64,000 bases of DNA from an uncultured Victivallales bacterium (GTDB taxonomy: Bacteria > Verrucomicrobiota > Kiritimatiellia > UBA8416). Location: positions 105,695 through 169,694 of the forward strand of contig CAZCDU010000002.1 in the NCBI GenBank assembly GCA_964497125.1. The letters run 5' to 3'. The notes below the pieces were generated by a model. That model saw only the letters and a program-made list of their open reading frames with translations. It did not search any database and was not told where the DNA came from. The position numbers were made by a program, and so were the translations under genes. Shown here piece after piece: positions 3,407 through 36,728 of the stretch. Positions within the stretch are counted from its first letter, which is position 1; every line of letters starts with the position of its first letter.

Positions 3407-5016
3407 CAGGAGTCACCTCGGTCAACTAACGTCAGCTCTGCTCTCAGGATCGTACGGTCGTTCCCGGGGCTTCCCCAGAGTACCAACCGGTTGAGCTTTC
3501 CCGTGGCCCGAATCATTGCCTTCGTGCGCGCGGTATCGTGACGTTTAGGCGACGAGCTGCCGGACTGCATTAGCGAAGCCAGCGTATAGCCAGCCAACGC
3601 TTTGATCATCAAGTCACTACTATCCTCCAAGTCAGCCCACCCATAGACCGAGGCGTTGTGCTCTGCCAGCCCTGACCCCCAAGCCGCCTGCACGTCCCCG
3701 GCATTCGCTCCGGACAGGATCCGCCGCAGCACATCCACATTAGACATCGCAATCAGCCAGCCATCATGAACGGCAATGGCAGGGCGTTCATTGGCGCCCA
3801 ACAGTTTCTTGAAGCTGTCGCTACGGACCGAATCAACAACATAAATGCGGGGATCATGGGTATCCGGTGTCGAAACCACGCCCCAGCCGTAGACAGCGTT
3901 CATCGAGTCCAGCATGCGACGGACCACACTCGCACCATCGGCATCGGCAACCATCGGAGCGACAAGACCGAATGACGGCACCTTCATGCGCATCATGCGC
4001 CCATAATAGTCACCACCGCATGCGAACAGGTAAACATCCCCATCAGACCTGATGTCATTCTGCAACGCTGACCACAACGTCGTCACCTGGGTATCGTTCC
4101 AGCTCGTAACAAGCCGACCGGCTTGCTGGACTGGCGTTGCCGTGATGATGGTGGGGCGGTGACCGAGGATGGCGGGCGGTGTGCCAGGCTGCGCGGAGAG
4201 GAAACCAGAAGGGTCGAGCGGCATCCACCTACCGAGCTCACCAAGGTCAGAGGCGGGCGGCAGTTCAGCAATAACCGACACACGCTCGGACGACAGATCG
4301 GTGAACCCACCGCGGATAACAACACTCGCCCGACCGGCTTCGCCGGGAGGCGTGACACGAGCCTTGAAGGCGTCGAGAAGCTCGTGTGTGCCCGTGTCCT
4401 CACACCACTCCTGCACCAGTGGCGTGGGTGGCAGTTGACGTTGAAGATTTGGTAAGCAATAGAGGACACCCAAGGGCTCAGATGAGAAGCAACCGACGAG
4501 CACGCCCTCATGTACCGTAAGCGAGATGTGGTATCCGGTTCTCAGCTCATTGCAGGGCCTGAACCACACCCGACGGTTGCCCATGATCTTATGTGCGCTG
4601 AAGTCACCAAGGTGACGATCGATGAGTCCCCAGCGCAGAAACTGGGAGTAGCCACCCACCCAGGCCCCAAAGACAAGAGCCTTTTCAGAGCGCACCCCCA
4701 GGGAAGGTACCAGCCCCGTCACAACATAGCGCGACCCCAGAAGATCCACCACCTTGGAGAGTCCGGCGCTATTGAGACTCTGTTCAATGGCCGCAGCATC
4801 GGCACCAAACTCAACGGCAATGTTCGTTATGGCGGGACTGCGCGCAAAGGCCATCCAACGGTCGGCGGGCGCTATATGTCGTGTCGCCAGCGTAGCGTCG
4901 GCAGGGATCACCCGGCATACCAGCTCGGGACGGAAGGGAAAGTGGAACACCCACCAGCAAGGGAGAATGATGAAGGCGAGGACCAGGACCAGGAAAATCG
5001 CGCGGCGTACCTTCAT
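3406..5016 (-). CDS. Hypothetical protein with N-terminal membrane anchor
   Basis: Long ORF (ATG at 5016, MKVRRAIFLVLVLAFIILP) packed between pyrD and the BASS gene; its stop shares a base with the BASS start; no family motif recognised. Confidence 0.75.
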   Translation of the reverse strand: MKVRRAIFLVLVLAFIILPCWWVFHFPFRPELVCRVIPADATLATRHIAPADRWMAFARSPAITNIAVEFGADAAAIEQSLNSAGLSKVVDLLGSRYVVTGLVPSLGVRSEKALVFGAWVGGYSQFLRWGLIDRHLGDFSAHKIMGNRRVWFRPCNELRTGYHISLTVHEGVLVGCFSSEPLGVLYCLPNLQRQLPPTPLVQEWCEDTGTHELLDAFKARVTPPGEAGRASVVIRGGFTDLSSERVSVIAELPPASDLGELGRWMPLDPSGFLSAQPGTPPAILGHRPTIITATPVQQAGRLVTSWNDTQVTTLWSALQNDIRSDGDVYLFACGGDYYGRMMRMKVPSFGLVAPMVADADGASVVRRMLDSMNAVYGWGVVSTPDTHDPRIYVVDSVRSDSFKKLLGANERPAIAVHDGWLIAMSNVDVLRRILSGANAGDVQAAWGSGLAEHNASVYGWADLEDSSDLMIKALAGYTLASLMQSGSSSPKRHDTARTKAMIRATGKLNRLVLWGSPGNDRTILRAELTLVDRGDS

Positions 5017-34861: not shown

Positions 34862-34981
34862 GTGAGACTTCGATCCGCGGGCCGGGAAATCTTCCCGGCC
34901 GTGGAGGAGAAAGTCAAAAGGCGGAAGATTTCCCGCCCCACCTGGAGAATCCAAATCTCCGGAAGACGCGCCAAGTCTCAC
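34862..34981. repeat. Inverted pair of family-2 REP-like hairpins inside a 9-bp outer stem
   Basis: GCGG-GCCGGGAA-ATC-TTCCCGGC (34877-34899, plus) and GTGG-GGCGGGAA-ATC-TTCCGCC (34920-34941, minus); closed by GTGAGACTT/AAGTCTCAC. Confidence 0.7.
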
Positions 34982-35742
34982 TTCAGAGGAAACTCATCCT
35001 GGTTGATATCGAGAATCCGGGAATCATTGATTAATTTGTGATCCAGGGTCTCGACGAACGAAACATACGGCATAGTCCGGTACTCGCTGACGCGTTTGAG
35101 CTTCTTCAGAATGTCTGAGATATCATCCACAGCACGTGAACAGGCCTCGAATTCCTCCTGCTCCAACACCTCCGGACGCAGGTCCCGAACACGGGAAAGA
35201 TAGAGGCTCAGAATCGTGGCCGGTTGCCCCAAGTGGTGACATGCGGCTCCAAGACTCTCAATCATGACGCGCTGCTGCTCGGCGGCGACAATCTCATCAG
35301 ATTGATTCTGGATCGTCTTGACCATCTGCCGCGAGAGCTCAAGCTGCTCATCCAACCTCGAAATCTTGTCCTGCAGGCCGTGAATGATGGTGTTCAACGA
35401 CTTCTCGATGTCCACCATGTCCTGCTCGTGAAGCACTAGGGTTGCTTGTTCAGGGAGATCCTCCGCGGCCATCTGCGCCAGGTAGTCGCGGAGACGTTCG
35501 ATATTGGCCGGGTAGCGGCGGAGTATGCTGTAGCCGAGGATACCGGAGAGCAGACCAGTGGCCATTACGGCTGTCTGCGTAACTACTGAATACGTAACGA
35601 TTGTCGTGAAGAGCGAAAGCGCCACGAGCGTGAAGGACAGCATGGGAATAATCACTGTCAGGGCGACGGCGATCTTGATCTGGTAGCGAGATCGCTGAGA
35701 GGTCAGCGATGTCGAACCAAACCACGACGATCGATGCTGCAT
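34978..35742 (-). CDS. Two-TM membrane protein with HAMP-like linker and HisKA-like (DHp) helix, no ATPase domain
   Basis: Two hydrophobic helices, a coiled coil, ESLGAACHHLGQPATIL H-box-like motif; ends ~70 aa later without N/G boxes. Confidence 0.7.
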   Translation of the reverse strand: MQHRSSWFGSTSLTSQRSRYQIKIAVALTVIIPMLSFTLVALSLFTTIVTYSVVTQTAVMATGLLSGILGYSILRRYPANIERLRDYLAQMAAEDLPEQATLVLHEQDMVDIEKSLNTIIHGLQDKISRLDEQLELSRQMVKTIQNQSDEIVAAEQQRVMIESLGAACHHLGQPATILSLYLSRVRDLRPEVLEQEEFEACSRAVDDISDILKKLKRVSEYRTMPYVSFVETLDHKLINDSRILDINQDEFPLK

Positions 35743-35770
35743 CGTCCTTCTATCCCTTCAGGAGCGCTCG

Positions 35771-36607
35771 CTATTTGACGTATTTACGAGTCACCTTTAC
35801 CAGCGTTTTCCACAAGCTCGTCTGATCCGCCGCAGCAAGCAAGGCTTCACGCGCGTCGGCAGCCATGAAGGTCTCGGTTAACCCAGCCAGCAGCTTCAGG
35901 TAGAAGGCGCTCGCGGCGGTTGGAATCACGAGGAAGAAGATGATATTCGAGGCCTCACTATCGGGTCCCTCAAAACAGATGCCGTCTTTGCTCAACCCCA
36001 CGGCAAGCGTAAGGCCTCCGCCCTCTACGCCTCGCACGTGTGGGAACGCCAGCCCATGGTCCACGGCCGTCGAGTAGATGGCTTCACGGCGCATAGCTTC
36101 TTCCGCAAGGAGGTCGGCTCGATCAATGAACCCCTCGTCTTCCATGCGCTGAGCCAACAGCGTGATGGCACCATCCCGATCACAGTCGCCAAGATCAACA
36201 ACCATCAGACTCTCTGCGGAGAAACGTGAGATACCGGGCTTTGGCTTGTCAAAACGTCCGGGACGTTTGCGTACATTCCGAGCAGCGGCTTCGGGCATGA
36301 ATAGAAAACGCGCACAATTCGGGCATGACTGCACTTCCTCGGCTAGCCGGACCTGTTGTACGAGGCTTCGCGGAAGCTGCATCCCACATGCCGAACAGTT
36401 GCTTTCGGAAACAGCCACGATCACGTTCTGGTCTTTCTTCTGCAGTTTCTCGAACATCACCTTTGTGTCCGCAGGGAGCTGCTCGGTCATGGACGCGATG
36501 GCCTCGTTGAGCTGCTCAAGGTGAATGGCTCCACCAGCGACGCGCTGCTCTTCGCGTACCAGGGTCAGTTCCTGCAACTGAATAAGGTGGTTTACTGTGG
36601 GATGCAT
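35771..36607 (-). CDS. C4 Zn-ribbon (DUF164-like) fused to a PTS EIIA (mannitol/fructose/Ntr-type) domain
   Basis: CSACGMQLP...CPNCARFL; RREAIYSTAVDHGLAFPHVR with the phosphorylatable His retained; GGAG RBS before ATG 36607. Confidence 0.85.
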   Translation of the reverse strand: MHPTVNHLIQLQELTLVREEQRVAGGAIHLEQLNEAIASMTEQLPADTKVMFEKLQKKDQNVIVAVSESNCSACGMQLPRSLVQQVRLAEEVQSCPNCARFLFMPEAAARNVRKRPGRFDKPKPGISRFSAESLMVVDLGDCDRDGAITLLAQRMEDEGFIDRADLLAEEAMRREAIYSTAVDHGLAFPHVRGVEGGGLTLAVGLSKDGICFEGPDSEASNIIFFLVIPTAASAFYLKLLAGLTETFMAADAREALLAAADQTSLWKTLVKVTRKYVK

Positions 36608-36728
36608 GTATGCTCCAATTATCTTGAGGTAACGCACTACCTAGTCTGAACATGGGCCAAAAATAGCCAAGGCCACTGCCCCCGAAGTCTAGTAAAGCAG
36701 CCGCCACTGTCAACAACAACCGCACGAT

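Follow-up and report, generated by a model that had tools for sequence, protein, structure and literature searches.

Genes A and B, two minus-strand neighbours at positions 34978-36607 of a 64,000-nucleotide (nt) stretch of DNA from an uncultured Victivallales bacterium (the window, meaning this whole stretch), encode a zinc-ribbon/EIIA fusion and a membrane-anchored, kinase-less protein with a predicted dimerization and histidine phosphotransfer (DHp) module, respectively. Judged by its sequence signals, the pair is laid out as a bicistronic operon. We read it, in a judgement that is evenly balanced, as a family-specific two-gene operon joining two lineage-specific signalling proteins with separate evolutionary histories and, for the most part, separate functions. 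This reading builds on domain identities, conservation, the family-wide absence of a catalytic and ATP-binding (CA) domain, gene distributions and the operon layout; phosphorylation of A, phosphotransfer or phosphatase chemistry of B and any contact between A and B are inferred. The elements of the locus are as follows.

35771-36607, minus strand: gene A, an open reading frame (ORF) of 278 amino acids (aa), zinc-ribbon/EIIA fusion
34978-35742, minus strand: gene B, an ORF of 254 aa, membrane-anchored kinase-less HAMP-like/DHp protein
35743-35770, minus strand: A-B spacer of 28 bp with a GAAGGA Shine-Dalgarno sequence and no terminator (sequence and scan)
36686-36713, minus strand: sigma-70-like promoter candidate upstream of gene A, TTGACA-16-TAGACT, with 10/12 consensus matches (a pattern match alone)
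34918-34939, minus strand: terminator-like GC hairpin with T tract after gene B (scan), also an arm of a repetitive extragenic palindrome (REP) family

The promoter candidate, the Shine-Dalgarno sequences, the lack of an internal terminator and the putative terminator after gene B all argue for an operon, and an earlier note on this DNA had likewise described two co-oriented genes 28 bp apart. The ORF of gene A extends upstream to a GTG at 36637; GGAG precedes the ATG at 36607 and, since all homologues of A begin with MHP, this ATG is taken as the start of the gene.

Gene A Places an EIIA Domain Behind a Zinc Ribbon

Four segments can be distinguished in the product of gene A.

36434-36607, minus strand: residues 1-58, three short helices (residues 3-24, 27-42 and 46-58 in the AlphaFold2 (AF2) model), remnant of the FlgZ/CdsZ coiled-coil hairpin
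36299-36421, minus strand: residues 63-103, C4 zinc ribbon C71-x2-C74 ... C95-P-x-C98 (PF02591), all four Cys invariant
36218-36298, minus strand: residues 104-130, basic linker ending in a conserved KPGISRFS, with residues 110-118 disordered (predicted local distance difference test, pLDDT, <50)
35774-36217, minus strand: residues 131-278, EIIA(Ntr)-type domain (PF00359), with the His190 codon at 36038-36040

Both modules score above their Pfam cut-offs: Zn_ribbon_9 (DUF164, PF02591) at aa 71-102 with 40.3 bits (cut-off 29.1) and PTS_EIIA_2 (PF00359) at aa 143-269 with 69.7 bits (cut-off 27). The phospho-acceptor motif reads GLAFPH190VRG, and an alignment of 34 homologues leaves C71, C74, C95, C98, G125, R128, F129, His190 and Tyr236 invariant, together with much of the EIIA core. 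The fusion of a DUF164-like ribbon to an EIIA domain that keeps its phosphorylatable His (FPHVR), as called in the earlier note, is thereby confirmed.

The EIIA half belongs structurally with PtsN/EIIA-Ntr. A sequence search of the PDB with this part matched PtsN/EIIA-Ntr chains alone, and the AF2 model of A (pLDDT 84) superposes in Foldseek with TM-scores of 0.81-0.87 on PtsN-type proteins of E. coli (1A6J), Neisseria meningitidis (2A0J) and Burkholderia (3URR, 4GQX), which share the EIIA_2 fold. PtsN and A also have in common the GxAxPH phospho-His motif, the upstream Arg and a permease-less, regulatory phosphotransferase system (PTS). PtsN acts via phosphorylation-dependent binding of partners, sensor kinases included; in its unphosphorylated form it binds KdpD (PMC9239096). 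Unlike PtsN, however, the EIIA domain of A follows a zinc ribbon in the same chain, and its gene lies away from rpoN, which is present in the genome. Tyr236 takes the place of the second His of PtsN, and the scores of A fall far short of the equivalog cut-offs for PtsN (TIGR01419, 33.9 bits against 138.7; NF008145, 19.9 bits against 221). A solo EIIA of 149 aa exists in the genome separately from A.

The N-terminal part of A finds CT398/CdsZ (4ilo) in Foldseek at an E-value of 2e-3. The same genome encodes a canonical coiled-coil/Zn_ribbon_9 protein of 246 aa, whose last 85 residues align with residues 20-103 of A, so that A is a paralogue in which the coiled coil was cut to three short helices and an EIIA domain was added behind the ribbon. 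The presence of this canonical copy also rules out A as the sole FlgZ/CdsZ orthologue of the lineage. With FlgZ (HP0958, Helicobacter pylori) and CdsZ (CT398, Chlamydia), A shares Zn_ribbon_9 with both CxxC pairs and the flanking first and last helices; unlike them, it misses about 130 coiled-coil residues and has an internal rather than C-terminal ribbon. The layout of a long N-terminal coiled coil with a C-terminal ribbon is thus not found in A, where some 60 helical residues precede the ribbon and the EIIA domain follows it, and the CdsZ model NF047363 gives 23.3 bits (cut-off 275), covering profile positions 166-239 alone. Sigma-54 is among the binding partners of FlgZ and CdsZ, and RNA is bound by the FlgZ ribbon (PMC3372290, PMC5947703); the coiled coil of CT398 is the part reported to bind RpoN (PMC5947703). 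A 2011 survey of DUF164 architectures lists no EIIA fusion (PMC3372290), and our literature search found no paper on a zinc-ribbon/EIIA fusion. As a separate observation, the second gene upstream of A in a distant relative is a short NIF3/DUF34 gene (locus L003, 3847-4158), NIF3 genes being classical neighbours of FlgZ-type zinc-ribbon genes (PMC3372290).

Gene A is a nearly universal gene of its class. In the sample of 121 genomes of the class that we used for distribution and linkage, 109 carry it, nearly always as a single copy, and the absences fall mostly in one family. Among the carriers is a cultured member with a complete genome of 2.9 Mb on one contig (G051). More than 2,700 homologues were found; the 120 best listed all share at least 56% identity and typically have 276-281 aa, and the source names of homologues point to Kiritimatiellia and related "Lentisphaerae/Verrucomicrobia" metagenome-assembled genomes. 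Beyond the class there are few distant full-length relatives. Gene A is usually followed by a convergent aminotransferase gene, AsnC, a SpoU methylase and type II secretion system (T2SS) E/F genes, an order kept class-wide.

The genome encodes two enzymes I (EI), three HPr proteins and six EIIA_2 proteins, namely a cation-antiporter fusion, two amino-acid-permease fusions, an EIIA-CBS-CBS protein, the solo EIIA and A itself; the five besides A are located on contigs C14, C18, C29, C128 and C117 of this genome, G000 (loci L007-L011). No PTS_EIIC was found in the assembly, which is 93% complete, and the earlier remark that neither EIIB or EIIC nor a response regulator adjoins the pair holds. The lack of EIIC makes the PTS purely regulatory and rules out a role in sugar transport for the EIIA domain of A, which is one of several targets of this regulatory PTS. 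Overall, the PTS of this genome seems to act solely as a regulator of transporters and signalling proteins.

Gene B Encodes a Membrane-Anchored DHp-Like Protein Without a Kinase Domain

The product of gene B is divided as follows.

35518-35679, minus strand: residues 22-75, two transmembrane (TM) helices with a 7-residue outer loop (sequence and AF2 helices 13-45 and 53-92; basic residues flank the cytoplasmic sides)
35368-35517, minus strand: residues 76-125, HAMP-like helix-connector-helix, YPANIERLR...EDLPE...DIEKSLNTII (AF2 topology and CpxA Foldseek match)
35077-35367, minus strand: residues 126-222, signalling helix and DHp-like hairpin (alignment invariants, HisKA hits and Foldseek)
34981-35076, minus strand: residues 223-254, short tail with a conserved YRTxPY (pLDDT 45-55)

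The AF2 model (pLDDT 80) has both TM helices followed by a hairpin of residues 107-188 and 196-222. H169 lies within this predicted DHp-like hairpin, in line with the earlier placement of the His in a DHp bundle. It belongs to the H-box ESLGAACHHLGQPAT, in which C168, H169 and H170 are encoded at 35233-35241, and the alignment of B and its homologues shows an invariant box A-A-C168-H169-H170-x-G-Q173-P174-x-T176; in the tail, Y221, T223, P225 and Y226 are conserved. An ordinary HisKA H-box reads His-Glu-x-x-Thr/Asn-Pro. The box of B has the usual Pro at +5, yet its other flanking residues are Cys (-1), His (+1) and Gln (+4). Two TM helices, a HAMP-like linker and an H-box-like helix, all read earlier from the letters alone, are consistent with the AF2 topology, the invariant box and the match to CpxA. 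The 7-residue outer loop leaves no periplasmic sensor in B, so any input must be cytoplasmic or membrane-borne. The Cys-His-His box could also be a metal- or redox-sensitive site; metal transporter genes adjoin four of the 22 B-type loci inspected (Nramp twice, CorA and FecCD).

No Pfam family exceeds its cut-off in B. HisKA (PF00512) scores 15.7 bits, below its threshold of 26.9; it matches 29 of 43 homologues at E-values of at most 0.1 (best 5.6e-6), and no other family recurs. One relative (P0300) exceeds the HisKA cut-off on the DHp module itself, with 33.4 bits. HAMP (PF00672) and HAMP_2 do not match B and give weak matches in one and two of the 43 homologues, respectively; the HAMP assignment is therefore based on topology and on the HAMP-DHp region of CpxA, which is the best Foldseek match of B (142 columns), and not on a Pfam score. 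In the PDB, Foldseek matches B best to portions of CpxA, a LOV kinase, GacS and ERS1 that comprise HAMP-DHp or DHp, with probabilities of 0.92-0.98 and a root mean square deviation (rmsd) of 1.5-3 Å over 65-90 columns. For the DHp of CpxA the rmsd is 1.5-2.2 Å over 65-72 columns, at a probability of 0.96-0.97 and E>0.1. A profile search of the PDB with the B alignment returned chance-level matches alone, among them the EnvZ DHp at an E-value of 0.18. Some homologues are named chemoreceptors in their source; no MCPsignal domain was found, and this candidate was rejected.

B ends 85 residues past H169, which leaves no room for a HATPase_c domain. This could reflect a local truncation of a kinase, an option that is ruled out by the C-terminal position of the DHp module family-wide. 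An exhaustive phmmer search with residues 145-254 of B yielded at least 355 clusters at 50% identity, of which 134 have E-values of at most 1e-10. Among the best 150 hits listed, proteins of 85-631 aa, nearly all matches end no further than about 10-20 residues from the C-terminus. The motif CHHxxQP is kept in 248 of 257 family proteins, at a median of 78 residues from the protein end and more than 130 residues in only two, and no HATPase_c was detected among 223 B homologues. The absence of an ATP-binding domain, stated before for B, hence extends to its relatives. Nor is a split kinase plausible, since no separate HATPase_c gene adjoins B in the window and none is a recurrent neighbour in the 22 B-type loci.

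The family is almost confined to the class: the module was found in 26 same-class genomes and in just one genome outside the class, in a sample of 201. Its N-terminal partners are diverse, comprising the TM-HAMP-like part of the B type, receiver (REC) domains, PAS-PAS, REC-HD and a full kinase core before a second DHp; REC-DHp, REC-TM-TM-DHp and histidine kinase (HK)-...-DHp fusions are thus present among the relatives of B. No fusion of the DHp module to EIIA or to a zinc ribbon occurs in the 257 family proteins. Our literature search found no paper on this family.

Two further architectures were observed. A PAS-PAS protein ending in the kinase-less DHp module is encoded in the same genome (G000:C36:27405-28713; L022, 11406-12713), next to a PilM/secretin cluster and 10 kb from rpoN, and a counterpart of about 380-420 aa is present as one copy in many genomes of the class. 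In chains of about 620 aa (L038, 3862-5727; G025:C171; G081:C17), REC and a kinase-like core whose H-box is degenerate are joined to two TM helices and the kinase-less DHp module.

Some Relatives of Gene B Keep Company With Receiver Domains

Large hybrid kinases are found at five of the 22 B-type loci, and the other neighbours are heterogeneous, including ApbE, leucine-rich repeat (LRR), FecCD, CorA, Nramp and ABC transporter genes. Hybrid kinases adjoin relatives of B at L019, L032, L044 and L045. At L040, a tight operon consists of a PAS-HisKA-HATPase-REC hybrid kinase without a histidine phosphotransfer (HPt) domain, a NarL-type regulator and a B-type gene; the hybrid kinase of L044 is similar to this one. 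At L045, a REC-HK-REC protein is encoded together with one of REC-TM-TM-DHp architecture, and L021 and L034 hold DHp-only proteins inside clusters of kinases and REC-HDOD proteins. These contexts suggest receiver (Asp) domains, and not EIIA, as the phospho-partners of B relatives.

The nearest known counterparts are Spo0B (Bacillus subtilis), ChpT (Caulobacter) and RedE (Myxococcus), which derive from kinases, do not autophosphorylate and either carry phosphate from one receiver domain to another or take it off them. With these B shares a DHp-type hairpin, a conserved His and the lack of autokinase capacity (PMC3433190, PMC2755868). The likeness extends to some relatives of B, near which HPt-less hybrid kinases and response regulators are encoded or which carry a fused REC. 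RedE cannot autophosphorylate; a receiver domain is its phosphate donor, and it removes phosphate from a second regulator (PMC2755868). Differences exist as well. The B family has no CA-like domain, just a tail of about 30 residues (of low confidence in the model of B) following the hairpin, whereas proteins of the Spo0B/ChpT type combine the DHp bundle with a C-terminal CA-like alpha/beta domain. B is also membrane-anchored via a HAMP-like linker, has a Cys-His-His-x-x-Gln-Pro box and lacks an adjacent relay partner in the window. By this analogy, a role on receiver domains, like that of Spo0B, ChpT and RedE, is the most likely one for B.

Linkage of Genes A and B and a Model of Their Function

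All four genomes of the window's family (G000, G054, G067 and G078), from three genera, keep genes A and B side by side, with B identities of 51-55% and A-B spacers of 43-73 bp, against 28 bp in the window. On metagenome contigs, homologues of both genes occur together only among closer relatives; distant B-type loci have no A nearby, and distant A genes have no B nearby. The earlier note had let the coupling of A and B stand or fall with their linkage in other genomes. With adjacency confined to the window's own family, this coupling is largely refuted, and a direct hand-over of phosphate becomes unlikely.

In the model that we consider for A, phosphate would pass from phosphoenolpyruvate (PEP) via EI and HPr to His190, and the phosphorylation state would change what the mini FlgZ/CdsZ module, a helical hairpin with a C4 ribbon, binds. 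The partner may be a protein or RNA; sigma-54/RNA polymerase would be the leading, unproven candidate, although A has lost most of the coiled coil that is reported to hold RpoN. B would be a sensor-less, membrane-anchored DHp dimer incapable of autophosphorylation, whose invariant His169 would pass phosphoryl groups to and from the receiver (Asp) domains of hybrid kinases and response regulators, or which would dephosphorylate them. In the family of the window, both proteins might communicate by phosphorylation-dependent binding of the EIIA domain to the cytoplasmic HAMP/DHp part of B, as PtsN does with KdpD and PhoR, and A would then supply the input that B, missing a sensor domain, cannot receive by itself. 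Guided by this precedent, we hold such phospho-state-dependent binding to be a tentative proposal, with a chance of roughly a third; the lack of any functional link between A and B is given about the same weight. Direct His-to-His transfer from A to B is improbable, binding being the likelier form of contact.

Several observations weigh against this model. A + B adjacency was seen in none of the about 20 other class genomes with a full-length B-type gene, and the order of genes around A is conserved class-wide whatever their function, so that adjacency in one family is weak evidence of coupling. For A, the module retains just a stump of the coiled coil, the part by which CT398 is reported to bind RpoN. 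For B, the structural matches of the DHp part have poor E-values of 0.3-2 though their probabilities are high, which is expected for a helical hairpin. A kinase neighbour is present in only five of the 22 B-type loci, and the window holds no hybrid kinase or response regulator near B. Finally, with four ordinary HPt domains in the genome, a relay step of the DHp type is not required by default, and the idea of an HPt-less genome in need of a DHp substitute is ruled out.

Alternative Explanations

The adjacency may be incidental, B having been inserted beside A in the ancestor of the family. The pathways would then be unrelated, with A as a PTS-regulated factor and B as a relay or phosphatase for a two-component pathway encoded elsewhere. 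The convergent aminotransferase gene lies directly after A in distant genomes, B-type genes have heterogeneous neighbours, and synteny around A is kept irrespective of function, all of which suit this explanation. It accounts less well for the tight spacing of 28-73 bp, the co-orientation, the lack of an internal terminator and the maintenance of the pair across three genera, and B lacks a sensor of its own. We consider incidental adjacency possible, if on the unlikely side.

B could also be a pseudo-kinase adaptor similar to RocA or DivL. Docked on a genuine membrane kinase, or paired with it as a heterodimer, B would then adjust the kinase/phosphatase balance of that enzyme and carry no phosphate itself. 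A membrane anchor and a DHp-like dimerization hairpin with no CA domain would suffice for this. RocA of Streptococcus pyogenes, which modulates CovS, is likewise a membrane-anchored, kinase-dead, DHp-containing accessory protein, and its His is not needed; RocA has a degenerate CA domain and a dispensable His, whereas the His box of the B family is almost invariant (PMC7028121). This near-invariance argues against a pure RocA-like scaffold, as conservation of CHHxxQP across the family fits chemistry at the site rather than docking, and the REC-DHp fusions suggest phosphate exchange inside one chain. An adaptor role is accordingly given a low probability.

A closer coupling, in which the phospho-EIIA domain of A would charge the DHp dimer of B, or gate it by contact, and B would set the phosphorylation of a response regulator, appears very unlikely. 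If true, no earlier natural example of such a bridge would exist: the signal would originate from a PTS protein in place of a histidine kinase's ATP-binding domain. Its strictest form is a full relay from PEP via EI and HPr to His190 of A, to His169 of B and on to a response regulator, by which the PTS would be wired into a His-Asp pathway. PTS chemistry routinely passes phosphate from His to His, both proteins have invariant histidines, A and B are probably co-transcribed in the family of the window, and B, having neither a kinase domain nor a sensor, needs an external phosphodonor or input. Against the relay stand the linkage in one family of two genes that are widespread and otherwise unlinked, the lack of an EIIA-DHp fusion among the 257 family proteins, the fusion and operon partners of the DHp module, which are REC domains and hybrid kinases and hence Asp donors, and the Tyr at the second active-site His position of PtsN. 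We know of no report of EIIA-to-DHp transfer. The interpretation given in the earlier note is upheld in its domain calls, whereas the proposed phosphorelay from PTS to DHp is weakly supported, and we rate the full relay as highly improbable; the fallback of that note, B as a phosphatase or an adaptor, may still apply.

Significance of the Two Protein Families

A is a PtsN-like switch fused to a module that binds sigma-54 in Helicobacter and Chlamydia, and it is present in nearly every genome of a class. The association of ptsN with rpoN is long known and poorly explained; if the readings given here hold, it becomes testable on a natural fusion such as A. The B family places a kinase-less DHp behind TM, REC or PAS inputs. 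If its members are relay or phosphatase stations, the two-component wiring diagrams drawn for these bacteria are incomplete. The A-B pair, found in one family, could serve as a compact system in which to examine cross-talk between the PTS and two-component systems, although the evidence for coupling is weak.

Minor Observations

On contig G015:C1, the EIIA half of A recurs in five incomplete copies (residues 88-277 or 107-277) at 4394, 15903, 3064021, 3075532 and 3087043. The copies lie towards the two ends of this 3.1-Mb contig at intervals of 11.5 kb and reflect either an artefact of assembly or tandem repetition of a unit of about 11.5 kb. The hairpin after gene B consists of GGGGCGGGAAATCTTCCGCC followed by a T tract and is a member of the GGCGGGAA REP family.

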